Assembly: GCA_045639065.1 (NCBI GenBank)
Contig: JAZUCK010000001.1
Coordinates: 11,331 to 75,330 of the forward strand
DNA length: 64,000 nt
Source: Alphaproteobacteria bacterium
Lineage (GTDB): Bacteria > Pseudomonadota > Alphaproteobacteria > RF32 > CAG-239
Reading direction: 5' to 3'
Under the pieces are notes generated by a model. It saw only the letters and a list, made by a program, of their open reading frames with translations. It was not told the origin of the DNA and searched no databases. How positions within the stretch are numbered: position 1 is the stretch's first letter; each line of letters begins with the position of its first letter. A program made the position numbers and the translations under genes. Shown here in pieces: positions 1,481-28,461 of this stretch.

Positions 1481-4105
1481 TTAAGCCTTATTTAAGATGT
1501 CAAAAACTTTTGCTGTCAAGTCACCTAAGCTGTATGGCTTAGTAATAAACTCGAATTCATGAGTATTGTCAACTTCTTTACGAGCAATATCTTCAGAATA
1601 TCCAGAAGCCAAGATAACATCTATATTCGGGAGTTTTTCTTTGACGATGTTAGTAAGCTGGGCTCCGCTCATTCCAGGTAGCACCATGTCTGTCAGTAAT
1701 AGGTTAAAGTCACTGTCTTTTTCTATTATTTCGAGAGCGTTTTCAGCCGAATTTGAATCGACTACATCATATCCTTTTTTCTTTAGTGCTCGAACAGCAA
1801 AAGCTCTAACGGAATCTTCATCTTCGACAAACAAAATTCGTGCCGGGCGAGATCCTTTATCAACTGCGGAACTGCTTCTGTCAATAGTGTTAGAGATATT
1901 TAAGCCCATAATTATCTTTTGATTGATATTATTCGGAGTTGAGAATGTTTCTTCAACCTTTAGGATTGTATGTCCTGATTTGTCAGTTATAACCGGTGAC
2001 GCAATGTTGGTATTTTCTTCTTCGGGACCGGTTTCAAAGCGAGGTAAATAAATTGAAAAAATTGTTCCTTTGCCAACCTCGGAGGAAACTTTGATAAATC
2101 CTTCGGTTTGGCGTACAATACCATATACCATGGCTAAACCTAATCCGGTACCTGATCCTACAATGTTTTCTTTGGTTGAGAAGAACGGATCAAATATTCT
2201 TTCTATAATTTCTTTAGGTATTCCGCAACCGGTATCTTCGACATCGATAACAACAAAATCTCCAGGCATAACGACATCATCACCAAAGGTATATTTTTCA
2301 ACTAATTTATATGTTGAAGTTGAAATAGTAAGGTTACCTGTTCCTGACATAGCATCTTTAGCATTAACAGCTAAGTTTATGATTACTTGAGAAAATTGTG
2401 TCGGGTCGACTTTTATATAGCCTAAATCGCTACCATGTTTTATTGATAGCTTAATTTTTTCACCCAAGATTCTTTTTAACATTTGACTGAGGTCTGCAAA
2501 GGCATCAGGAACATCAATAAGTTTCGGTAGTAAAGGTTGTTTACGTGAAAAGGCCAATAACTGACGAACTAAAGAAGTTGCTCTGTTTGCATTTTGCTTA
2601 ATTTGAATAAGGTCAGCGAATGAAGGATCGCCAACACCATGCCTTTGAAGCAATAAATCAGTAAAGCCTATCATTGCGGTCAAAAGATTGTTAAAGTCAT
2701 GGGCTACACCACCTGCAAGTTGTCCGACTGCTTGCATTTTTTGTGCCTGAGTAAATTGAGCTTCTAAACTTTTTTGTTTTGTAACATCAATTGCATATAT
2801 AATGTACTTATGCTCGTTTGTTTTATCATTTTGATGTAGGTGGTGCAGTTCATTTATATACAAATTTAGAGTCGTATCGTTGGTTTTAAGCTCGGTTGTA
2901 ATTGATTTGTGTGTGTTGGTAGCTTTATCCAAGGCATTTTGTAATATAGAGGTTTCTTCTGCGGATAGTTTTCCGTATAAGTCAATTGAACCTGAATTAA
3001 GGTTAAACAGTTCGGAAGCTTTAGGGTTGGCCTTTTTTATAATGCCTGAACGGTTGATAAATAATATACCAATGGGCGAATTATTAAAGAACCAGTTTAT
3101 ATCATCTAAGGATTTATTAACTTGCTGTTGTAGTTCTTCAGGGGTTGGAAGCTGATGAATGACTGCACCGCGAAGCATTATTTTTTCTTTTTCTCTATAT
3201 GAGTTTTGAAAAACAAAAGTTTCGGCGGTTTCACCGGAATGTTTAGTAAACAAGAGCTGTCCGCTCCATAAATCTCTATTTGTAGGAACAGATGAATCCG
3301 AAGATAAGAAATTACGTAATGAAGTTCCGATAAGTTGATGTGGTTTTAAGCCCAAAAAATCAGCCATATTATGATTTACATAATTTATGGTATAATCGGT
3401 GTCTATAGTGTATAAGCCGATAGGAAGGTAATCTAAGAAATTATGTAAAGATGTACTTTCTTCTTTGAATACATAATCCATATTTTGTTTGGCTGTGATA
3501 TTATTTATGGTCCAATAAAAATAAGTTTCTTTCTTGATTCGTTTTATAGAAAAAGCTCCATCAAAAATATTTGGTTTTTTTAAGTATATCGGACGAACCG
3601 AAATTTCAAAGTATTCTAGGTCATTAAATATTAAATTACTGTTTTGCTTTAGCAAAAGCGATAAGGTCACTTTTTCGGAACTTAAGTTTTTTACTGCAGT
3701 TTGTAATCTATAGAAAGCTGCTTTTGTTGAAGAGCCTTGAGTTAAGTATTTTTCTAAAAATTTAAGTACATTTTCGTTTTTGAAAAAGTCTTTTGCAGGT
3801 GCATTTTCAATTATGGTTTCAAAATTTGAGTTTTCGATACGACGCATTTTAAAATCATTTTTGATTATTTCGTTGGCAAATCCGCCGTAGCTGATGGCTG
3901 TTTCTCCCGCATATAAAGTTTTTATAGCTGTAGTCAAGCAGTAAATTGTTGTAAGCGATGTTATAATTGTTGAATAGAGAATATGGGCTCTGTCTAAGAA
4001 AAACCATAGCAAGCAAAGCGTTAATATTATTAAAGAAAAGGCTAATTTGAGTAATGCTTTTTCTAAAGTTTTATCAGGTCTATTGTTGTTTGAGTTGCAT
4101 AACAT
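1481..4105 (-). CDS. cckA: CckA-like hybrid sensor histidine kinase (TM, PAS, HisKA, HATPase, receiver)
   Basis: QAQKMQAVGQLAGGVAHDFNNLLTA H-box, INLAVNAKDAM N-box, GTGLGLAMVYGIV G2 box, C-terminal REC domain; directly downstream of flhB as in many alphaproteobacteria. Confidence 0.9.
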   Translation of the reverse strand: MLCNSNNNRPDKTLEKALLKLAFSLIILTLCLLWFFLDRAHILYSTIITSLTTIYCLTTAIKTLYAGETAISYGGFANEIIKNDFKMRRIENSNFETIIENAPAKDFFKNENVLKFLEKYLTQGSSTKAAFYRLQTAVKNLSSEKVTLSLLLKQNSNLIFNDLEYFEISVRPIYLKKPNIFDGAFSIKRIKKETYFYWTINNITAKQNMDYVFKEESTSLHNFLDYLPIGLYTIDTDYTINYVNHNMADFLGLKPHQLIGTSLRNFLSSDSSVPTNRDLWSGQLLFTKHSGETAETFVFQNSYREKEKIMLRGAVIHQLPTPEELQQQVNKSLDDINWFFNNSPIGILFINRSGIIKKANPKASELFNLNSGSIDLYGKLSAEETSILQNALDKATNTHKSITTELKTNDTTLNLYINELHHLHQNDKTNEHKYIIYAIDVTKQKSLEAQFTQAQKMQAVGQLAGGVAHDFNNLLTAMIGFTDLLLQRHGVGDPSFADLIQIKQNANRATSLVRQLLAFSRKQPLLPKLIDVPDAFADLSQMLKRILGEKIKLSIKHGSDLGYIKVDPTQFSQVIINLAVNAKDAMSGTGNLTISTSTYKLVEKYTFGDDVVMPGDFVVIDVEDTGCGIPKEIIERIFDPFFSTKENIVGSGTGLGLAMVYGIVRQTEGFIKVSSEVGKGTIFSIYLPRFETGPEEENTNIASPVITDKSGHTILKVEETFSTPNNINQKIIMGLNISNTIDRSSSAVDKGSRPARILFVEDEDSVRAFAVRALKKKGYDVVDSNSAENALEIIEKDSDFNLLLTDMVLPGMSGAQLTNIVKEKLPNIDVILASGYSEDIARKEVDNTHEFEFITKPYSLGDLTAKVFDILNKA

Positions 4106-5150
4106 ATCTAATAACCTCGGCTACAGCGTGGAAATGTTCAACAGGTATTTCTTGATCAAGCTCGGTTGATGCAAACAAGGCACGGGCAAGCGGCGGATTT
4201 TCTACGATAGGAATATCGTTGTCTTCAGCCACGGCTTTGATGCGTAAGGCAACAGTATCCACACCTTTTGCCGTTACTTTTGGTGCCGGCATTGTTTCCA
4301 TCTTATATTCTAATGCTACAGCATAATGGGTCGGGTTGACAATAACAACATCTGACTTGGGGACATTTTCCATCATGCGTTGACGAGCTCTATCCATACG
4401 TATTTGTTTTATCTTTGATTTTACTAAAGGATCACCTTCCATTTGCTTATATTCTTCTTTGACTTCTTGTTTGGTCATACGAAGTTTTAGCAAGTGAGAA
4501 TATTTTTGCCAAAAATAGTCGCCTGCCGCAATAACTAATACAGCCATGGTAACGGTAAATAACAGCAAAATAACTATGTCGTGGATAAAGACTAAGATTG
4601 CAAAGGTATCCATTGTAGGTAATAGTTCGCTTTTGGTAATATATGGGCGTAGTACAACGTATGCTAAAATACTTACTACTGTTATTTTTATTATTCCTTT
4701 TATGCTTTCTACGATTTTTTGCTTGTTTATAAATTTGGGAATAGCTGCAAATATATTTAATTTATTCCAATTCGGTTCGAGTTTTTTGGGAGCATAGATA
4801 AATCCTGTTTGGCTTAGGGAAGCAAATATACCTAATATTATAAATATTAGGAAGGGAATTCCCATTACTTTGAAAAATCCGAAGAAGGCTTGTTTTAATA
4901 ATATAATAAAACCGGCAACATCAACATTGGTTGAGGCTGAGCGAGCTATAAAAGATGAACCTATAGTTTTAAGCCATACAAACATTATGGGAATAAATAG
5001 CCACACAACAAAAAGAGTGCCGACAAGCATAATAAAACTTTTGGCATCTTGCGATATGGCAACGTCGCCTTCTTCTTTGGCTTTGGATATTTTTCGTTCG
5101 GAAGGTTCTTCGGTTTTGGACGCTTCGTCTTCTTCTTCGGGGGCTACCAT
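4080..5150 (-). CDS. flhB: Flagellar export apparatus protein FlhB
   Basis: KTEEPSERK N-terminus, KEEYKQMEGDP, NPTH autocleavage motif, ENPPLARAL. Confidence 0.97.
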   Translation of the reverse strand: MVAPEEEDEASKTEEPSERKISKAKEEGDVAISQDAKSFIMLVGTLFVVWLFIPIMFVWLKTIGSSFIARSASTNVDVAGFIILLKQAFFGFFKVMGIPFLIFIILGIFASLSQTGFIYAPKKLEPNWNKLNIFAAIPKFINKQKIVESIKGIIKITVVSILAYVVLRPYITKSELLPTMDTFAILVFIHDIVILLLFTVTMAVLVIAAGDYFWQKYSHLLKLRMTKQEVKEEYKQMEGDPLVKSKIKQIRMDRARQRMMENVPKSDVVIVNPTHYAVALEYKMETMPAPKVTAKGVDTVALRIKAVAEDNDIPIVENPPLARALFASTELDQEIPVEHFHAVAEVIRYVMQLKQQ

Positions 5151-5166
5151 GTCAAAGCATCCTTAT

Positions 5167-5922
5167 TTAATGAGTGAACAGATAAAGCCCTTCGTCAAAG
5201 TATCCTAAAAATACGGATACAATAATCGGGGCGGTTACAAACAATAATCCAATTCCCAAATATATTTGTAAGGGTAAGGATAAAAAGAAAATATTTAATT
5301 GGGGCATCAAGCGCGATACCAGACCGATTGATGTGTAAAATATTATGGTAAAAGCTATAAACGGTGAGCCTAGCTTAAATCCAAAAGTAAATGATTTGGT
5401 CATTGTATCGGTCATATGTGAGGCAAAATCGTTCCATGGGATAGGTTGTCCCGGAACAAATAAATAATAGCTGTCTATAATTGCTTCAAGCATTATGTGA
5501 TGTATATCCATTATAAATACAAGTGTTATGGCGATAATGCTTAAGAATGATTCGATGAGCATTGTTTGATTTTGGAATGTCGGATCAAAAATTTGAGCAT
5601 TGGCAAAGCCGATAGCTTGTGAAGCAATAGAACCGGCTAAGTTTAGAGCGAAGAACAAAAATTGCATTATCATACCTAAAAATATGCCAATGCTTATTTC
5701 ATTTAATATATACTGCACCATAATACTGAAATTTTTCGGTTCTTCGGGAAGCATTGGTGTTATTAAAGGCATTGACACCAATGATACAGCCAAAGCAAAA
5801 ATCAGACGTATTTGTACATTGACATAAGATGCCGAGAATCCGGGTGTCAGCATAAAAATAGTACCCATGCGTAGAAATATCATAAGGTAGGCATATACTG
5901 ATATGTTAAATAATTCCGTCAT
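5167..5922 (-). CDS. fliR: Flagellar export protein FliR
   Basis: Multi-TM protein with IGLVSRLMPQLNIFFLSLPLQI; between fliQ and flhB. Confidence 0.95.
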   Translation of the reverse strand: MTELFNISVYAYLMIFLRMGTIFMLTPGFSASYVNVQIRLIFALAVSLVSMPLITPMLPEEPKNFSIMVQYILNEISIGIFLGMIMQFLFFALNLAGSIASQAIGFANAQIFDPTFQNQTMLIESFLSIIAITLVFIMDIHHIMLEAIIDSYYLFVPGQPIPWNDFASHMTDTMTKSFTFGFKLGSPFIAFTIIFYTSIGLVSRLMPQLNIFFLSLPLQIYLGIGLLFVTAPIIVSVFLGYFDEGLYLFTH

Positions 5923-5929
5923 CTAAATT

Positions 5930-6193
5930 TTATCCACCGGCAATTTTTGAAAAAAGTGAATCTGATAGGGTTTGCATTTGATTATACATAAACGGAAACA
6001 AAACCACTAAAGCTAAAAATACACAAAGAATTTTAGGTACAAATGCCAATGTCATTTCTTGAATTTGAGTCAATGCTTGGAATATACCGATAATAAGACC
6101 GACGGCCAAGGCAATACATACAATCGGGGATACTATTTTTAACAAAGTAAAAATAGCATCTCGTGTTAATTCAAAAATTTCAGCTTCAGTCAT
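5930..6193 (-). CDS. fliQ: Flagellar export protein FliQ
   Basis: GIFQALTQIQEMTLAFVPK signature. Confidence 0.96.
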   Translation of the reverse strand: MTEAEIFELTRDAIFTLLKIVSPIVCIALAVGLIIGIFQALTQIQEMTLAFVPKILCVFLALVVLFPFMYNQMQTLSDSLFSKIAGG

Positions 6194-9004: not shown

Positions 9005-9793
9005 TTAAGGAAAAATGAACTCGGCTAAAGAATTGAGTTCCATTTTTGCTGCTAAGTGAGAAACACTCATGCGACGATGAAGTTTGGGGGAGTTCATATC
9101 AAGTATTGTTAAACCGTCCAAAAACAATTCTTTATAGATAACCCTGTCTTTTAGACCAGGGGTAAATCTGAAGCCATAAAGCTTAGCGAGGCTTTCAAGC
9201 TTTGCAAAAACAAAGTCCTTGTTTTTTGAACGTAAGGTCGATGTCTTGTTACTGCAAACCACCCAATTCAGATAAGGAAGTTCTTTGGCTGCGAGTTTCT
9301 TTTTGGTTTCCCATACAAATTCGGCATAGTGACCGGCTTTTAGAATTTCGCCGTTTTCAGGATTTATATCAGCAATAGCCGACAAATCTACAAGACTGTC
9401 ACCGATTGGGGTAATAAGAGTATGTAAAAATTTGTGAGCGAGTTCAAACAGATAGTTTCTGCTTCCGGGAGTGTCGATAATGATGGCGTCGAATCGTGTT
9501 GAAAGCTCGTCAATAAGATCCTCAATTTCTTTTTTGTTGGTTTCCTTGGCAACGGGTTCGAAGATGTAGTGCACGGGAGAAGGCAGGTTGATTTTGTTCT
9601 TAGTACAGAATCTGCGTCTGTTTTCGATATATTTGGATAATGATCCTTGGTGTCCGTCAAGATCAATTACAGCAACCTTAAAGTTTTCATATAGTAATTT
9701 TGTTGCTAGGTGCATTGACAAAGTTGATTTTCCGGTTCCGCCTTTTTCGTTGGCTACTACGATAATATGTGCTTTTGATGATAAAATACTCAT
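9005..9793 (-). CDS. mipZ: Division plane positioning ATPase MipZ
   Basis: IIVVANEKGGTGKST, DLDGHQGSL, DTPGS, DRVIYKELFLDGLT. Confidence 0.88.
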   Translation of the reverse strand: MSILSSKAHIIVVANEKGGTGKSTLSMHLATKLLYENFKVAVIDLDGHQGSLSKYIENRRRFCTKNKINLPSPVHYIFEPVAKETNKKEIEDLIDELSTRFDAIIIDTPGSRNYLFELAHKFLHTLITPIGDSLVDLSAIADINPENGEILKAGHYAEFVWETKKKLAAKELPYLNWVVCSNKTSTLRSKNKDFVFAKLESLAKLYGFRFTPGLKDRVIYKELFLDGLTILDMNSPKLHRRMSVSHLAAKMELNSLAEFIFP

Positions 9794-11441: not shown

Positions 11442-13688
11442 TTATCTTTTTAGCATTTTAATTTCAAGTTTTATATCATTTCTTTTTTGTTTGTATTTTT
11501 TACGTTTTTTACCGAAACATATTTTAGATAATATGTAGTATTTATAATATTTAAGTTTTAATTTTCGGATACTTGAACTTGATGACGATATTTTCTTTAA
11601 TATGAAATAGTACGGATTATACATTTTTTCATTTTCACAGGATAAAGCTTCCGTTAAAAAGTTTTGCGAAATGTCTAACCATTTTTTTAATCGTTCGGCA
11701 AAATCTGTATAATCGATTTTGTCTGCATTTCTAATTATTGAATTGTCAATTTTTTGAGAAATTACAAATGATGATTGGGGAATATTAAACATTTCAAAAA
11801 GAGATTTTACTCTTTCTTGGCGACCATTATCTTTTCCGATATAAATGAATTGTTTGTTAAATATTAAGCAAAAACATATACAATGGAATGAATCGGTAAG
11901 GACGAACGATGCATTGTTTAGAGTAGCTAACCATTCTTCAATAGTTAAATTATGGCGAATACTCTGAAAATTGCTAAGTGAGTTTTCGGCTTCTTTATTA
12001 AGTTCTTCGTTTACAATATAGTATACATTTTTGGTATTTTTTACTGATGTATCGGCAATTTTATTCCATTCGTCTTTTGTCAGTAAGAAGACAGGATCTA
12101 ATACATGAGTTGCTTTGGTTCTAAATACATCTCGACAGATATCTACACCACTTTTTTCTCTGACACCTATTCGATTAAATTTTGAAAGTAACATACCAAC
12201 ATTGTCAATTTCATCATTTGAAGCAGAAAATTTGGCTTGTCCGAAAGATGCCGAATAGGCGATACTTTTATTTGTATCATCAACAAAACCTAAGAAATAT
12301 ATGTGTTTATATTTAGAAACAAACTCGTAATTAAAAACTTGATCAGAGCCCACAATAAATGTGCCAAAATCGTCATTTAGTTTTATTAAATCTTTCATCG
12401 AGTTGCATTTGTACGTTAAAGGAAGATTTTTTGCTCTAAATTCAGGGAAATTTGATGAAGAATAACTATTTTTACCCCAAGCCGGTGTATAATCAATATT
12501 ATATGCATCAAATCCCAGCGAATTGATGTACTTGTTTAGTGCGTATGATGTTAATATTGCGCCGTAATTGTTATTTTCAAAATGAAAATTGAGTAAAGCA
12601 ACTTTTTTATTTTTATCAAATATTTGAGATATTGTATCATCAAAACTAAATTTATCCAAATATTCAAAGAATTTGTCGCGGGCAAAATGCTTTGGTGAAG
12701 GATTACGAAGCTGTGGTTGTAAAACCTTATCTTTGGGATATTCTTTTAGAAATAAAGGATTATGTTTTTTTATGTTATCTAACAAAATTGTTCCTTTATT
12801 ATTTATGGAAATTAAATTTATCCCCTTATTATCATCGATATTTTCCGGACATCCCCAAAAATCACCGACCATGATATCCGAAACTCTGTTTGTACTGGCA
12901 TAAGGACAAGAATGACAACTTTTTCTTAAGCATATGTCTGATAAAAATGCTTTATAGAATGTATCATTATGCATTACTTCACTATACAAAATATTTTTAT
13001 CGTCGCTTATTACAAATGTAAAAGTATGCCATCCTAGTTTTTTGTTTCGGAAATTGACCGATACATCATTTTTTATATCTTTTTCAAGATGTTTACTCTC
13101 AATAAATTTTTCAAAAACCTTAGGTGATGGAACGCCGTGACAAATTAAATCTATTAAATACAAATTATCGTAAGGTTTTGATAAAAATTTTCTTAAAGCA
13201 TTTACTTGACAAGGTGTACCGACAAAAGCAACAACATCGCCTTCTTTTAATTTATCGGCCACTTCATTGTAAATATTTTCAGTATCACTTTGAAAATATT
13301 TTGACCCACGCATATATTTGTCAAAAAAATCAAAGCTTTTAGTTAAGCGATGAGCTAATTTTCCTTTGTAAAACGATGCTCCGCAAAACCAACCGCCTTG
13401 CTCTATAATATGTTTGGCAATTATTGCGCACATACCGCCGGTTGAACTTTTACTTCTTTCAATCTCATTTTTGCTGTAAACAGCATAAAATTTTCTGTCA
13501 TCGGTCGGGATATTTTCTTTTTGTATTGGGCAAACTTTATTACATTTTGTACAATTGATACAGGCATTTTCATCTACTACAGGATATAAAAATCCTTCAT
13601 TATTGGGAATCATTTTGATTGCATTTACCGGACATACATTTTTGCAAGCCCCACAGCCTGTACAATTATCAAAATTAACATCAATCAT
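11442..13688 (-). CDS. Fusion of 4Fe-4S dicluster / F420 hydrogenase beta-like domain and polysaccharide pyruvyl transferase
   Basis: CTGCGACKNVCP and CINCTKCNKVCP ferredoxin motifs, GSKYFQS, GTPCQ, CHGVPSP, DIMVGDFWG; then NYGAILTSYAL, GSDQVFN, YSASFG, VREKSG, DPVFLL, TDSFH. Confidence 0.85.
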   Translation of the reverse strand: MIDVNFDNCTGCGACKNVCPVNAIKMIPNNEGFLYPVVDENACINCTKCNKVCPIQKENIPTDDRKFYAVYSKNEIERSKSSTGGMCAIIAKHIIEQGGWFCGASFYKGKLAHRLTKSFDFFDKYMRGSKYFQSDTENIYNEVADKLKEGDVVAFVGTPCQVNALRKFLSKPYDNLYLIDLICHGVPSPKVFEKFIESKHLEKDIKNDVSVNFRNKKLGWHTFTFVISDDKNILYSEVMHNDTFYKAFLSDICLRKSCHSCPYASTNRVSDIMVGDFWGCPENIDDNKGINLISINNKGTILLDNIKKHNPLFLKEYPKDKVLQPQLRNPSPKHFARDKFFEYLDKFSFDDTISQIFDKNKKVALLNFHFENNNYGAILTSYALNKYINSLGFDAYNIDYTPAWGKNSYSSSNFPEFRAKNLPLTYKCNSMKDLIKLNDDFGTFIVGSDQVFNYEFVSKYKHIYFLGFVDDTNKSIAYSASFGQAKFSASNDEIDNVGMLLSKFNRIGVREKSGVDICRDVFRTKATHVLDPVFLLTKDEWNKIADTSVKNTKNVYYIVNEELNKEAENSLSNFQSIRHNLTIEEWLATLNNASFVLTDSFHCICFCLIFNKQFIYIGKDNGRQERVKSLFEMFNIPQSSFVISQKIDNSIIRNADKIDYTDFAERLKKWLDISQNFLTEALSCENEKMYNPYYFILKKISSSSSSIRKLKLKYYKYYILSKICFGKKRKKYKQKRNDIKLEIKMLKR

Positions 13689-13706: not shown

Positions 13707-14654
13707 TTATACTTTGATATTAAAAGTATTTGTTACCTTTTTTACAAGATAGTTGCCGATAAAGGCATGATTTTCGAGTGTTTTTGAGCTTTTTTCAAAA
13801 TCAAAAGCGAGTATTTCTTTTTTTACTTGATAAAAATAGTCGACAATCTTTTGATCGTCATCTTGTGTAATTGTGGAATTACGAAATTTCTTTTCTAAGT
13901 CTTTACGAATTGTTGACATATGATGCATTGCGATTTCGTGTTTCGGAAACAAGAAAAATTTACCAAGACCATTCATTTTTCGGGTCGGATCAACAACGCA
14001 GGGAAAATATCCTTTTGATTTTACGCGTTTTGGAACGTTTATTTTGCAAATGAACGGGACATAAAAAGTAAATTGACCGGAAAGCTCGTGCGCATGTTCA
14101 TTTGCAGGAGAAAATATATAGTTGCTTACAAGTTGATATGTCGGGTCTTTTAAGTATTCAATAATTGAAACAGCCGAGCATTCAATTTTTTTTCTGACGA
14201 TAAAGTCTTTGGCTCTCTCGATTTCATCTTCAAAATAAAATTCATCGGTATCCATACTTAAATAATGGGTGCAACCGGCTTTTTTTGATATTTTCAATCC
14301 TAATTGTCGCTTGTTTCTTTCGTTCTCGGAAGCATGTAAATTTAAATTCGTATTATATAAAACATATTCGTCAATCAGGCCTCTTTCTTTTAAATCGGCT
14401 AATTTTATTTCTATGTCGTTGTTCCTTGTTTCGCCACAATTTGAAACTATTTGGTATACAACACTGATATAATGAGCAGATTTTCTTACTGATTTTATTG
14501 ATGCTTCGAGCAATTCTTCTCCGTCAAACAGGTTATACGAAATTCCGAGTTTTATTTTTTTGCTGTTATTTTGCTCGTAGGAGAATATTTTTTTGTTGAA
14601 CAAATAAAATTCGCGAATGTTGCCATTTTTTATTTTGTAGAAGAATTTACCCAT
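13707..14654 (-). CDS. Putative glycosyltransferase (GT-A / GT2-like)
   Basis: SYNLFDGEELL, ERNKRQLGL, DTDEF DxD motif, late HHM; in glycan operon. Confidence 0.65.
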   Translation of the reverse strand: MGKFFYKIKNGNIREFYLFNKKIFSYEQNNSKKIKLGISYNLFDGEELLEASIKSVRKSAHYISVVYQIVSNCGETRNNDIEIKLADLKERGLIDEYVLYNTNLNLHASENERNKRQLGLKISKKAGCTHYLSMDTDEFYFEDEIERAKDFIVRKKIECSAVSIIEYLKDPTYQLVSNYIFSPANEHAHELSGQFTFYVPFICKINVPKRVKSKGYFPCVVDPTRKMNGLGKFFLFPKHEIAMHHMSTIRKDLEKKFRNSTITQDDDQKIVDYFYQVKKEILAFDFEKSSKTLENHAFIGNYLVKKVTNTFNIKV

Positions 14655-14689
14655 ATGATTTATGAATCCTTTATTGTGTCATTATAGAA

Positions 14690-14754
14690 TCTATAAAAAC
14701 AAACGTTTATTTTATATAGCAAATCTTATAATTCAACAAAAAGTATAATGCAAG
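14690..14754 (-). promoter_or_regulatory. Sigma70-like promoter (-35 TTGCAT, 17 bp, -10 TATAAG) with downstream hix-like site; paralog of 27364-27428
   Basis: 48/65 ungapped identities to 27364-27428 by manual alignment; faces the 14654-11442 operon. Confidence 0.65.
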
Positions 14755-14896
14755 ATAAATTAGATAATTCAATGATTGTGGGTTATTTTTTTTATGCTTA
14801 GTTTGTATGATATACGAACGTTTATAAAAACAATATTTTTGTATGGAATATTGCTTTGGGATTGTAAAATGAGAAAGTTTAGTGGTTGTTATCAAT

Positions 14897-14929: not shown

Positions 14930-15340
14930 TTAGTGTTTTAAGGAGAAACCGATATCACGCAATTTTTCAATTAATTCTATATCGGCCTGTGCAAATTCAT
15001 AGTTATCGATTTCATCTAGTGTAATCCATGCTGTTTGGGCGTGTTCATTATCGACAATAGTATCGTTTTCATTGACCATATTTGCCCAGTATAAGTTGAT
15101 TTCGACTTGTGCAAAATCATAGTTGTGGGTTACTTGCATAATGAAATCACCAATAACGGTATCTATTTGCAATTCTTCTTGAAGTTCGCGGCGAAGGGCT
15201 TCTTGGAGCGTTTCGCCTTCTTCGGGTTTTCCTCCGGGGAATTCCCATACCAAAGGTGGTAATTTGGAGGCAGGGCGTTGAGCTATAAAAAGTTTGTTAT
15301 CTTTTACCAACGCAGCTGCAGCAACAACGATTTTTTTCAT
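14930..15340 (-). CDS. mutT: NUDIX hydrolase, MutT-like
   Basis: WEFPGGKPEEGETLQEALRRELQEEL Nudix box; start moved to ATG 15340 (AAGGAT RBS) from ORF-track 15385. Confidence 0.8.
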   Translation of the reverse strand: MKKIVVAAAALVKDNKLFIAQRPASKLPPLVWEFPGGKPEEGETLQEALRRELQEELQIDTVIGDFIMQVTHNYDFAQVEINLYWANMVNENDTIVDNEHAQTAWITLDEIDNYEFAQADIELIEKLRDIGFSLKH

Positions 15341-15437
15341 AATTATCCTTATATATTTATATTTGTCGTTGAGTTTATAACACAAAACTATTGATTAGTC
15401 AAACATTTGAGTATAAATTAAACCAATAATTATAACT

Positions 15438-25059: not shown

Positions 25060-26745
25060 TTATTTTGTTGTTTTATTTGGTAGTTTCAACATTTCACCAA
25101 ATTTATAATCCCATGTAACAGGCTCAAATGCATCAGTTCCGTTTCCTGGATAAAATGTCAACTCGCCTATATATAATTTTTCTCCTGTATCAAAAAAATC
25201 AACGCGCACAAAAGGAAATTCTTTGGACAACTTTTGTGCTATCTGCATCATTTCTTCAAAATTATTAGGTTTATTTATTCCATTTGGAGATGGATGAGAT
25301 GTCCATGTAAAAGGCAATTTATTATATTCAGCATCGTAAAAGTCATAACATTTGTTATTGAATCTGTCAGATACAATTAGCATAAATTTTATTTGGTTAT
25401 TAAAGCAATAGAATTTATAATCATACAAATCACCATTAAATTGTTGTAAAAACTCTTCAACAATAATTTTAGGCTCGATATCTTTATATACCCACTCAAA
25501 AAAGCTATAGTAATGATTGTTTTCCGGTTTCATCCAGTTTGATAATTTTTGTTTTGCTTCTTTGATGTCTAATTTTGACTTATCGGTTACGATAATATTT
25601 TGACCGCTACCCCAATTTACTTTGGCAACAAATTTATTCGGTAATGCATCAAAGTCTATTTCATCTGCGGAATTATATATTCCGATAATCGGCACCAAAT
25701 ATTCTTCGCCGATTTTTTCTTTTACATAATCTCTGACACCAACTTTGTCGGCACATTTGGTCATCAATGGGTCACGATAATAAAGCTTCAGCCATTGGAT
25801 TTTTTCGTTAAAAGTTTGAGGATTATCAAGATTCAATTCATAACCGGTTGCCTTTTTGAATTGAACTTCAAGACAATAGCGTATTTCTTCCTCGGTTAAC
25901 CCCTTAAAACGTTTGGCATATATTTTTTTGTATTTTTTATTCTTCTTTTTGTAACTGAATAATTTTATACCAAGCAGATAAATTGTTCTTTTACCGTCAG
26001 GTCCTTTTACCTTCTTGAATATTTTGAAATTAGGGTATTTTAATTTATCTTGGTTGTGTTTTTTTCCGTAGTGATATAAAAAATCTCCATTTTCACGATG
26101 TTCTGTTCCTTTTTCATAAAAGGGCAAGACACTGATATTGTTTTTCCATATTGCATAGTCAAATGATAATTGGTCACGTTTTGAATATTTTTCTATCATT
26201 TGCCACCACAATGACAGAGCATCCTTAATATTGTTATGTCGTCTGAAGATTATGCATGTTTCATGTAGTCCGTTATTAGTAGGATAATTTTCTGTTTTTA
26301 AGTGTTTCATTTCTTCTTTTACGGTTTTTGCGTAATCTATATCGGCACCGATAATTATTTTTGCTTCTTCATAAATGCATGCTCTTGCAGGATGTAACGG
26401 GACACTTATCTGAATGTTGTCAGCCAACATTTTTTCCACTTTATTTATTACATTTGGGGATTTAACAATAATGTTAGCATCAAGCCATAAGCTTGCTTCA
26501 TAGTTTGGAAATAAGATATGTGTGTTTACCTTATGCCATCTGGCATTTTTTACATTTGTTTGCTTATCAAAAACAAGAGGTCTTATTTCCCAGTGACCGA
26601 TGTGCTTCTTTTCAATAAGTTCTTTATTGTCTGTGAAAAACACATAATCCCAATCGTTACTTACAGCTTCGTATTGAGGGATGTCATCATATCCTCCGGT
26701 ACAACATGTATAACAAACTATTTTATGACTGTTTTTTGTAACCAT
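25060..26745 (-). CDS. Fusion of DUF616-like glycosyltransferase and TupA-like ATP-grasp domain
   Basis: YTCCTGGYD, WLDAN, HPARACIYEEA, SKRDQLSFDY; then NPQTFNEKIQWLK, DKVGVRDYV, YDYKFYCFN, RVDF, GELTFYPG. Confidence 0.85.
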   Translation of the reverse strand: MVTKNSHKIVCYTCCTGGYDDIPQYEAVSNDWDYVFFTDNKELIEKKHIGHWEIRPLVFDKQTNVKNARWHKVNTHILFPNYEASLWLDANIIVKSPNVINKVEKMLADNIQISVPLHPARACIYEEAKIIIGADIDYAKTVKEEMKHLKTENYPTNNGLHETCIIFRRHNNIKDALSLWWQMIEKYSKRDQLSFDYAIWKNNISVLPFYEKGTEHRENGDFLYHYGKKHNQDKLKYPNFKIFKKVKGPDGKRTIYLLGIKLFSYKKKNKKYKKIYAKRFKGLTEEEIRYCLEVQFKKATGYELNLDNPQTFNEKIQWLKLYYRDPLMTKCADKVGVRDYVKEKIGEEYLVPIIGIYNSADEIDFDALPNKFVAKVNWGSGQNIIVTDKSKLDIKEAKQKLSNWMKPENNHYYSFFEWVYKDIEPKIIVEEFLQQFNGDLYDYKFYCFNNQIKFMLIVSDRFNNKCYDFYDAEYNKLPFTWTSHPSPNGINKPNNFEEMMQIAQKLSKEFPFVRVDFFDTGEKLYIGELTFYPGNGTDAFEPVTWDYKFGEMLKLPNKTTK

Positions 26746-26747
26746 TT

Positions 26748-27335
26748 TTATTGTTCAACTCCTTTTAATTCAGGATTTTGTTGCAGATATTTGAAGATTA
26801 AGGCCATGGAACAGCCTATCTCATCTGCAATTTGTCGTTTGCTTCTTCCTAATTTGAGCATTTGAGTTATTTTTTGTTTGTTTCGTTCTAATATGGTGTT
26901 TTTACATTTTTTGCCTTTGGGAAAACCAAGAACCGCGCCCTCATTTTTTTTGTCACTTAAGGCTTTTTTGGTTATGGTCGAAACCATAGAATTACGGATA
27001 TCTATTGATAATTTGATACCTTGTATAAGTAATAAGGCTTCTTGTGATGAATTTAGTTTAAGATTTTCTTTGACACTGATTAGTTCAAATCCGTTTGATA
27101 TTAAAAACTCTATATTTTCTACAATTGTTGCCAACTTATTGCCTAAACAGGCGATATTGGCAATGATTAGAGTATTATTTTTTGTATTGATATTGTTTTT
27201 GATACTTTTGATGTCTGTTGCACAAAAAAACACATCAACCGTTTCCATATTTTGTTGGACAGATTGATTTATGACATCCTGTTGATTGTCTACGCTGATG
27301 TTTTTGGGGTTATTGTCTAAATATCCAACAATCAA
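26748..27335 (-). CDS. Serine recombinase (Hin/resolvase) homolog lacking catalytic residues, with C-terminal HTH
   Basis: VGYLDNN replaces GYxRVS; TLIIANIACLGNK replaces TLVVxKLDRLGR; G..LGFP arm and SKRQIADEIGCSMALIFKYL HTH retained; TTG start with GGAGG RBS. Confidence 0.75.
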   Translation of the reverse strand: MIVGYLDNNPKNISVDNQQDVINQSVQQNMETVDVFFCATDIKSIKNNINTKNNTLIIANIACLGNKLATIVENIEFLISNGFELISVKENLKLNSSQEALLLIQGIKLSIDIRNSMVSTITKKALSDKKNEGAVLGFPKGKKCKNTILERNKQKITQMLKLGRSKRQIADEIGCSMALIFKYLQQNPELKGVEQ

Positions 27336-27363
27336 AATTTGCCTCCATCAGTGGAATTTAGAA

Positions 27364-27522
27364 TCTACAAAAACCACCGTTTAAATTTAATAGTAAAATT
27401 CATAATCCAACAAATTTTAAATTGCAAGCAAAAAATCAGAAAACACAGTGGGTTTGCTTAAATTTACTCCTCTCTTGAAAAATAAGCAAATTTGCCTCTA
27501 CAAAAACGGTGGTTTTTGTTGA
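27364..27522. promoter_or_regulatory. Candidate invertible promoter bounded by inverted 26-bp hix-like sites (27364-27389, 27497-27522)
   Basis: 16-bp perfect inverted repeat, complementary AC/GT central dinucleotides, internal -35 TTGCAA / 17 bp / -10 TATGAA on the minus strand. Confidence 0.65.
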
Positions 27523-27538
27523 ACCATCGTTTTTTTTT
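27505..27538 (+). terminator. Plus-strand intrinsic terminator overlapping the right hix-like site
   Basis: AACGGTGGTT-loop-AACCATCGTT-TTTTTTT. Confidence 0.65.
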
Positions 27539-27708: not shown

Positions 27709-27963
27709 ATGCAAGATATTTCTGATTTAATCAAAGAAGCAAAACCTTTGTATCACAAACGAAAAAGACAAAGACGCATTGTCAAATCGGCATTGGCCGG
27801 TGTGGCATGTTTGTTCTTGGTCTTTGTAAATATGCCAAGTTATCAGATGGTTGATGATTTTTATAATCCTTATTTGGATTACGGATTTCAAGAAAATCAG
27901 GAAACATATGTTGAAAATCTCGGCTTGCCGGTTGATGATTACGGATTGCTTTTGGTGAGCTAG
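27709..27963 (+). CDS. Small single-TM protein, possible anti-sigma or ECF-associated protein
   Basis: Basic stretch, one TM helix; stop abuts the sigma start; RBS AAAGGAG. Confidence 0.55.
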   Translation: MQDISDLIKEAKPLYHKRKRQRRIVKSALAGVACLFLVFVNMPSYQMVDDFYNPYLDYGFQENQETYVENLGLPVDDYGLLLVS

Positions 27964-28461
27964 ATGAGAAATATCATTGAACAAAATAAGGGCTTGATAA
28001 AAGCCATAATCAAAAAAATTACCGGTTCGTATAATGACGATATCGAACAAGAGGTCTATATCAAAACTTGGAAAAATATCGATAATTATAAAGAAAGCGG
28101 AAAGTTAAAATCTTGGATTGCCACGATTACAGCCAATGTTTGCAGAGATTATTTTAAGTCGTCATCATATAAACAGAATATGCGTGAAGTGAGAGATGAA
28201 AGTGTTTTAGAAAACAAAGCTATTTTGGCTTCACAAGAAAAAGTTATAGATGCGAAAAAAAGGCAAAAAATAATCTTAAAAGCAGTTGATGAGTTGCCGT
28301 ATAAAATGCGAAAAGTTGTGATTTTGTTTGAATTTGAAGATTTTACTATCGCTGAAATTGCAAAGAAACTTGGCGAGCCGGAAGGAACTATTAAATCAAG
28401 ACTTTATAATGCAAGAAAAGTCTTGGCTGAAAAATTAAAATTTTTACTAGGAGAAAAATGA
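27964..28461 (+). CDS. ECF RNA polymerase sigma factor
   Basis: DDIEQEVYIKTW, SWIATITANVCRD (region 2), EIAKKLGEPEGTIKSRLYNARK (region 4). Confidence 0.92.
   Translation: MRNIIEQNKGLIKAIIKKITGSYNDDIEQEVYIKTWKNIDNYKESGKLKSWIATITANVCRDYFKSSSYKQNMREVRDESVLENKAILASQEKVIDAKKRQKIILKAVDELPYKMRKVVILFEFEDFTIAEIAKKLGEPEGTIKSRLYNARKVLAEKLKFLLGEK

Follow-up and report, generated by a model that had tools for sequence, protein, structure and literature searches.

A decayed paralogue of an invertible promoter, probably locked ON, upstream of a glycan operon in a gut alphaproteobacterium

Positions 14683–14846 of the window (the whole 64-kb stretch of DNA that was analysed) are best explained as a degraded paralogue of an Mpi/Hin-type invertible promoter. 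We regard this segment as a fossil switch locked ON, most likely a fixed promoter that always faces forward, and assign this reading a probability of about 0.65. The segment and the two genes behind it are referred to as locus 1; the related module 12.7 kb away, together with its genes, is referred to as locus 2. Locus 1 and its surroundings comprise the following features.

11442–13688, minus strand: second gene of locus 1, encoding a 748-aa fusion (4Fe-4S, FrhB/FdhB-like and polysaccharide pyruvyl transferase)
13707–14654, minus strand: first gene of locus 1, encoding a 315-aa protein of no Pfam family, with relatives in glycan clusters
14683–14715, minus strand: gene-side (proximal) recombination site of locus 1, including the conserved outer flank TAGAA (coordinates verified)
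14690–14701, 14702–14703 and 14704–14715: outer half-site TCTATAAAAACA, core AA and inner half-site CGTTTATTTTAT of the gene-side site (site L)
14709–14753, minus strand: promoter-like block toward the 315-aa gene, conserved in all nine switch copies
14754–14820, unstranded: decayed middle of the presumed former invertible segment, 40% identical to working switches versus 59% among them
14821–14846, unstranded: degenerate far (distal) site, TTTATAAAAACA-A-TATTTTTGTATG, whose half-sites are spaced 1 bp too tightly and which lacks a core complementary to AA
14900–14925, minus strand: terminator-like hairpin of the NUDIX gene, a 10-pair stem followed by a T run, just beyond the far site
14930–15385, minus strand: NUDIX gene

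The initial annotation had proposed that paralogous modules of a promoter and a recombination site, in the same register, each face a glycan operon, and this proposal is supported by the comparison of the two loci. The ungapped alignment of 14690–14754 with 27364–27428 was reproduced at 48 identities in 65 positions, and the gene-side bases TAGAA also match beyond it. Across all window positions and both strands, the second-best match to the locus 1 65-mer was 36/65 (mean 18.5, sd 3.7). A score of 48/65 is not expected by chance at such AT content: 20,000 dinucleotide-preserving shuffles in the fixed register gave a mean of 24.4 (sd 3.6, maximum 38), and native AT-rich 65-mers (A+T of at least 72%, n = 10,853) reached at most 34. 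Eight switches of other loci and genomes, without locus 1, were used to build an nhmmer profile, which matched locus 1 at 14759–14690 on the minus strand (E = 8e-8). Chance and AT-richness as sources of the similarity are ruled out by the shuffles, the window-wide scan and this independent profile.

A third copy of the module was not found in the 64-kb window by the nhmmer profile, a half-site motif search or a paired half-site scan. The exact half-site motif TCTAYAAAAAC occurs in the window only at 14690, 27364 and 27497. The top four paired half-sites in the window start at 27497, 27364, 14821 and 14690, each scoring at least 18/22. A score of 18 also arises somewhere in 6 of 30 shuffled windows, so the weak far site at 14821 is convincing only because it is located at the expected distance.

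Locus 2 is a genuine invertible promoter, found in both orientations across contigs of the same or closely related species and joined exactly at the 2-bp core. Its features are given below.

26748–27335, minus strand: first gene behind the locus 2 switch, encoding an apparently catalytically dead paralogue of Mpi-family serine recombinases (195 aa, C-terminal HTH)
27364–27389, unstranded: gene-side recombination site of locus 2, TCTACAAAAACC-AC-CGTTTAAATTTA
27376–27510, unstranded: invertible segment of locus 2, about 133 bp, ON in the window
27497–27522, unstranded: far recombination site of locus 2, TCTACAAAAACG-GT-GGTTTTTGTTGA

Positions 27364–27382 form an inverted repeat with the far site (19 nt, 95% complementary, with the opposite cores AC and GT), and the promoter TTGCAA (27427–27422)-N17-TATGAA (27404–27399) reads leftward. 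L014, a contig of 745 bp from a different sample, codes for a protein with 97% identity to the product of 26748–27335. There, plus-strand positions 27475–27508 of the window continue, at the GT core, into 27332–27379 in reverse complement, so that the segment is flipped relative to the window. One and the same protein, P0004, is encoded on eight contigs that agree in their flanks, of which four are ON and four OFF; an upstream flank is common to L025 (ON), L027 and L029 (both OFF). Likewise, L005 and L013 share their flanks and carry reverse-complemented middles. The ten copies from single assemblies were divided evenly (5 ON, 5 OFF), and several contigs end at the switch. No active serine recombinase was found in the 64-kb window by motif search or by phmmer with two true recombinases, so locus 2 must be flipped in trans, in the manner of Mpi in Bacteroides.

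A 14-pair hairpin with a T run after it (27502–27534, plus strand) encloses the far site of locus 2. When flipped OFF, the promoter would meet this terminator-like structure rather than the divergent ECF sigma/anti-sigma genes at 27709–28461. An unusual junction was noted in L031, where sequence from the far side of the P0004 switch runs into the gene-side flank of the L004 switch, the latter in reverse complement (L031:1–206 versus L004:5950–6000). It suggests recombination between switches of different loci, i.e., a large chromosomal inversion, or else an assembly artefact.

At locus 1, the elements named in the initial annotation are present. The 26-mer TCTATAAAAACA-AA-CGTTTATTTTAT occupies 14690–14715, and TTGCAT (14753–14748)-N17-TATAAG (14730–14725) on the minus strand stands in the same register as TTGCAA/TATGAA of locus 2. 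A strict sigma-70 scan skips this pair, whose −10 hexamer lacks the final T, and instead gives the overlapping pair TTGAAT (14736–14731)-N16-TAAAAT (14714–14709) on the same strand, with TAAAAT falling within the inner half-site of site L. Both sets of hexamers are kept in every switch copy, and the consensus of the promoter block across the nine copies is cTTGCatTATtA..TTT.TTGGaTTAtgaa..TTT..TATgTAAa.TAaACG. At the level of sequence and consensus, locus 1 has a promoter inside the segment that points outward through one site; we infer that it fires, with the strict scan favouring the other hexamer pair. Within the 162-nt segment, the −35-like hexamer begins at position 96 in locus 1, at 95–97 in most copies and at 83 in the shorter segment of L008. 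Relative to the start codon, the site centres lie at −187 and −54 in locus 1 and at −181 and −47 in locus 2 and most relatives.

Decay along the segment is uneven. The promoter and near site of locus 1 are 72% identical to those of the working switches, compared to 76% among the working switches themselves, while the far site is 55% identical, compared to 74%. The weaker quasi-palindrome previously reported for this position was confirmed at 131 bp from site L (133 bp in locus 2), one base short and without a matching core. In gene orientation it reads ACAAAAAT-ATTGTTTTTATAAACG in place of the canonical ACAAAAACCACCGTTTTTGTAGAGG; the changes include three C-to-T substitutions within CCACCG at the centre and a one-base deletion, and the half-sites are separated by 1 bp versus the canonical 2 bp.

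The far site keeps two recognisable half-sites, though the segment is not flanked by paired inverted sites: no inverted repeat scoring at least 9 was found in the upstream 330 nt. Perfect inverted repeats of 12–19 nt are present in 8 of the 10 other canonical-type switch copies. Around the core, nine other switch copies have kept the inverted repeat intact, and taken together their segments are found in both orientations. The crossover cores do not match either, the near core being AA and the reverse complement of the far site giving TT or AT in either frame. Lacking both inverted sites and matching cores, locus 1 was filed as a decayed member of the group and not as a switch.

Serine invertases make 2-bp staggered cuts at the site centres, and the two cores have to pair once rotated by 180 degrees. 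At locus 1, we do not expect productive inversion, because the far half-sites lie 1 bp too near each other and offer no core that complements AA. In the Hin system, mismatched cores are not ligated, and the parental sequence is recovered through a second rotation (PMC4513852). A locked switch, one of the options offered by the initial annotation, fits the shortened far site, the mismatched cores and the absence of an inverted repeat.

We propose the following course of events. An ancestral complete switch, with two inverted 26-bp sites around a segment of about 133 bp and an outward-facing promoter, may have been duplicated, or the genes downstream of it may have been exchanged. Locus 1 would have kept the promoter and the gene-side site, while the middle and the far site drifted. 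It probably no longer flips, and a promoter unable to invert productively would be fixed, reading into 13707–14654 and 11442–13688. With the NUDIX hairpin just outside the far site, an inverted promoter at locus 1 would have nothing to drive; this hairpin would also keep read-through out of the module.

The first gene behind the locus 2 switch bears on what the retained site of locus 1 may do. Judged by its sequence, the 26748–27335 protein is not an ordinary invertase but a catalytically dead Mpi paralogue. It matched NCBIfam NF009949 over its full length with 74.7 bits (E = 7.5e-21), below the cut-off of 272, and Pfam Resolvase with 19.2 bits against a gathering score of 23.3. The equivalents of Arg8, Ser10, Arg68 and Arg71 and the acidic/basic pair of helix E are replaced: GY[CIV]R[VIC]ST is changed to GYLDN[N/S/C], SRLGRN to ACLGNK and EIERxLISERT to DIRNSMVSTIT, with an additional 10-residue deletion. 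The replacement residues are conserved in 27 family members, a pattern that speaks for a new function and against a pseudogene. Paralogy to the active recombinases was recovered by phmmer at E ~1e-13.

The AlphaFold model of the dead paralogue (mean pLDDT 78) had as its top Foldseek matches Sin (2r0q, 5e-8), Tn3 resolvase and gamma-delta resolvase, and a PDB profile matched the Hin HTH (E = 0.003). The predicted fold is that of a small serine recombinase, with an HTH at the C-terminus. Metagenome-assembled genomes or metagenome contigs are the source of all 127 homologues of the protein, and 'Alphaproteobacteria bacterium' is the only name attached to them; one related locus belongs to Candidatus Scatocola faecigallinarum, order Rhodospirillales.

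Active enzymes are encoded beside the switches of relatives. In most related loci, a small serine recombinase with the motifs GY[CIV]R[VIC]ST..Q and SRLGRN adjoins the switch, in divergent or tandem arrangement, and active Mpi-family genes flank it in L002, L003, L007–L013 and L015. The active recombinase of L013 reached 272.5 bits on NF009949, 'master DNA invertase Mpi family' (cut-off 272).

Several further observations concern these relatives. Dead Mpi-family paralogues of ~200 aa head invertible-promoter operons in numerous assemblies of gut Alphaproteobacteria, and a single genome can have as many as three (L001–L013, L021–L032). A limited literature search, which is no proof of absence, returned no description of a dead serine recombinase in this position. 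We consider the dead paralogue the more novel lead, as a feature of locus 2 and its relatives and not of locus 1. In L003, L007, L008 and L013, a divergent active invertase gene lies upstream and the OFF-oriented promoter points at it. In such loci, the active enzyme and the dead paralogue would be expressed alternately, in an orientation-dependent circuit. This arrangement recalls FimE control.

The dead-recombinase gene is followed in some loci by a gene for a protein of ~333 aa with six tandem HTH repeats (L013:6596–7600, L002:5380–6378, L006:639–1637, L011:6590–7600, L021–L024). This protein has many weak matches to HTH models, including the CRISPR repeat-binding protein Cbp1 (1.6e-19), and has no counterpart in the window. 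Another class of loci (L002, L009, L011, L012, L021–L024) carries an active recombinase in tandem with the dead paralogue and, in the intergenic stretch upstream of the dead-recombinase gene, a repeat, TAACGAACGAT..., that differs from the canonical one. The TAACGAACGAT... inverted repeat is perfect over 17 nt in L011 and L012. The tandem-class P0022 locus was found in one orientation on 5/5 contigs, which is uninformative on inversion.

The outer half-site of locus 1 and its flank are near-identical to those of L001 and L003. Compared with locus 2, the outer half-site is identical at 10 of 11 positions and the flank TAGAA is common to both, while the rest of the old segment has decayed. Lying downstream of the promoter, in the predicted transcribed leader, this best-kept portion forms a suggestive, operator-like pattern. 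Its strong conservation suggests that the site still has a job, presumably the binding of a protein, and a purely fossil reading has no explanation for that.

The near site, perhaps with the weak far palindrome, may accordingly be a putative binding site for the dead Mpi paralogue or for a trans-acting invertase, which we consider possible but rather unlikely. In this model, locus 1 would need no inversion of its own, its expression being set by the phase state of locus 2; the model is compatible with the fossil reading. The inner half-site overlaps the −10-like TAAAAT, so that a bound dimer would occlude the promoter, and the dead protein retains the Hin-like HTH and the resolvase fold described above. 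The HTH type of the dead protein tracks the type of outer half-site in 7 of 8 loci, and the locus 1 half-site is of the matching type, but this correlation is drawn from related, non-independent loci, with L013 as the exception. Furthermore, the window contains only the four sites listed, and no wider regulon is visible in it. A single regulon with both glycan operons recognised by one HTH protein, as put forward in the initial annotation, is at most suggested by these data.

More specifically, one DNA switch might set two glycan loci, if the dead paralogue, made only when locus 2 is ON, binds the retained site across the −10 region and leader of the fixed locus 1 promoter and represses or activates that promoter; we put this forward tentatively, as a doubtful rather than a probable scenario. 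If true, two surface modifications would be coupled or mutually exclusive, linked by a recombinase turned transcription factor. Binding of the dead paralogue to the retained sites would constitute a new kind of link between phase-variable loci. Such coupling would resemble UpxZ-type cross-talk between Bacteroides capsule loci, with a different protein involved.

It is improbable that locus 1 is still a working phase switch, with site L partnered by either the weak far site or the ACGAACGTTTAT repeat close by. The complete switch geometry is retained, including an inter-site distance within 2 bp of that of locus 2. Moreover, the L005/L013 switch seems to invert with only the short CAACGT repeat (~6 nt), but with complementary AA/TT cores; very short repeats can thus suffice, and this was counted against the locked reading. 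On the other hand, the half-sites of the canonical far site are too close, its core is TT or AT where AA is needed in gene orientation, and the segment middle, conserved among working switches, is decayed in locus 1.

An alternative partner site at 14809–14834 (ACGAACG-TT-TATAAAAAC), which shares AACGTTT with site L, was rejected. Within it, 14814–14825 repeats the central ACAAACGTTTAT of site L at 11 of 12 positions and contains the palindrome AACGTT, and the adjacent TT could pair with core AA. However, its outer half-site is in the wrong orientation, leaving one acceptable half-site.

That the similarity reflects only a fairly recent duplication, with the site and promoter now functionless, is very improbable: the two downstream genes are intact, yet could be driven from elsewhere, but the strongly uneven decay along the 162 nt (72% vs 40–55%) is not a product of uniform neutral drift, and a strict sigma-70 scan showed nothing else that would clearly serve as a promoter from the NUDIX terminator to the 315-aa gene.

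The first gene behind the presumably fixed promoter of locus 1 has homologues behind working switches. The 748-aa protein matched PS_pyruv_trans (9.9e-33) and FrhB_FdhB_C (1.4e-25), and gene context points to a glycosyltransferase role for the 315-aa protein. A homologue of the latter in L003 lies behind a working switch, after the dead-recombinase gene and before a homologue of the locus 2 glycosyltransferase/ATP-grasp gene. In L015, another homologue comes after RgpF; the switch ahead of them has a perfect repeat of 17 nt, with a divergent active Resolvase gene and no dead-recombinase gene. These two arrangements of the 315-aa family indicate that operons behind such switches have been reshuffled between genomes. 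The closest homologue of the 315-aa protein was 61% identical, and the window's own proteins were without a record; metagenome contig scans gave 0 matches each for the locus 1 flank and for an AAAC-core site.

Both loci encode unusual fusion proteins. The gene at 25060–26745 (minus strand) encodes a 561-aa fusion of a TOD1/MUCI70 glycosyltransferase-like part and a TupA-like ATP-grasp part, and the 748-aa 4Fe-4S/FrhB-FdhB-like/pyruvyl transferase fusion (11442–13688, minus strand) is likewise unusual.

Invertible promoters before surface-glycan genes are a major route of surface variation in gut bacteria and are best known from Bacteroides. The same logic is found here in uncultured gut Alphaproteobacteria, with Mpi-family invertases, several loci per genome and both orientations in natural populations. 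The closest known system is that of the Mpi capsule promoters of B. fragilis, where short promoter segments between inverted repeats precede surface-glycan operons at several loci per genome. As in that system, the invertase may be encoded away from its targets, and an active recombinase of the relatives reaches the NCBIfam Mpi cut-off. B. fragilis has seven invertible capsule promoters and one, that of PSC, which is non-invertible and locked ON (PMC10403206); locus 1 is likened to PSC, as one fixed glycan promoter beside invertible ones.

The present system differs from that of B. fragilis in its host, a low-GC gut alphaproteobacterium, and in its sites, which are Hin hix-like (CAAAAACC, 2-bp core, GGTTTTTG). 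In addition, the first gene behind most switches here encodes the apparently dead invertase paralogue, and locus 1 retains the remains of both sites as a visibly decayed switch. Locus 1 would thereby provide a natural example of a switch fixed in one orientation, marking the parts that selection keeps, namely the promoter and the gene-side site.

We take the half-site sequence to be very close to the Salmonella hix consensus. As in Hin/hix of Salmonella (and also Gin, Cin and Pin), the 26-bp sites consist of two 12-bp half-sites and a 2-bp crossover core, the promoter lies inside the segment, and a core mismatch would block productive inversion, as it does for Hin (PMC4513852). In contrast to Hin, the segment measures ~133 bp rather than ~1 kb, the recombinase gene is outside it, no Fis/enhancer element was identified in the present loci, and the adjacent recombinase-like gene is predicted to be inactive. 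The flagellar switch of Clostridioides difficile uses the tyrosine recombinase RecV. One report on this switch relates inverted-repeat variation of the invertible promoter to expression heterogeneity (PMC12282940), and in this respect the switch resembles locus 1. The differences in C. difficile are point changes between isolates, whereas locus 1 has undergone extensive decay of one arm.

Just downstream of locus 1, the minus strand carries the flagellar export genes FlhB, FliR and FliQ and a MipZ-type ATPase gene (4080–6193 and 9005–9793). These genes are consistent with a motile alphaproteobacterium of only ~35% G+C.
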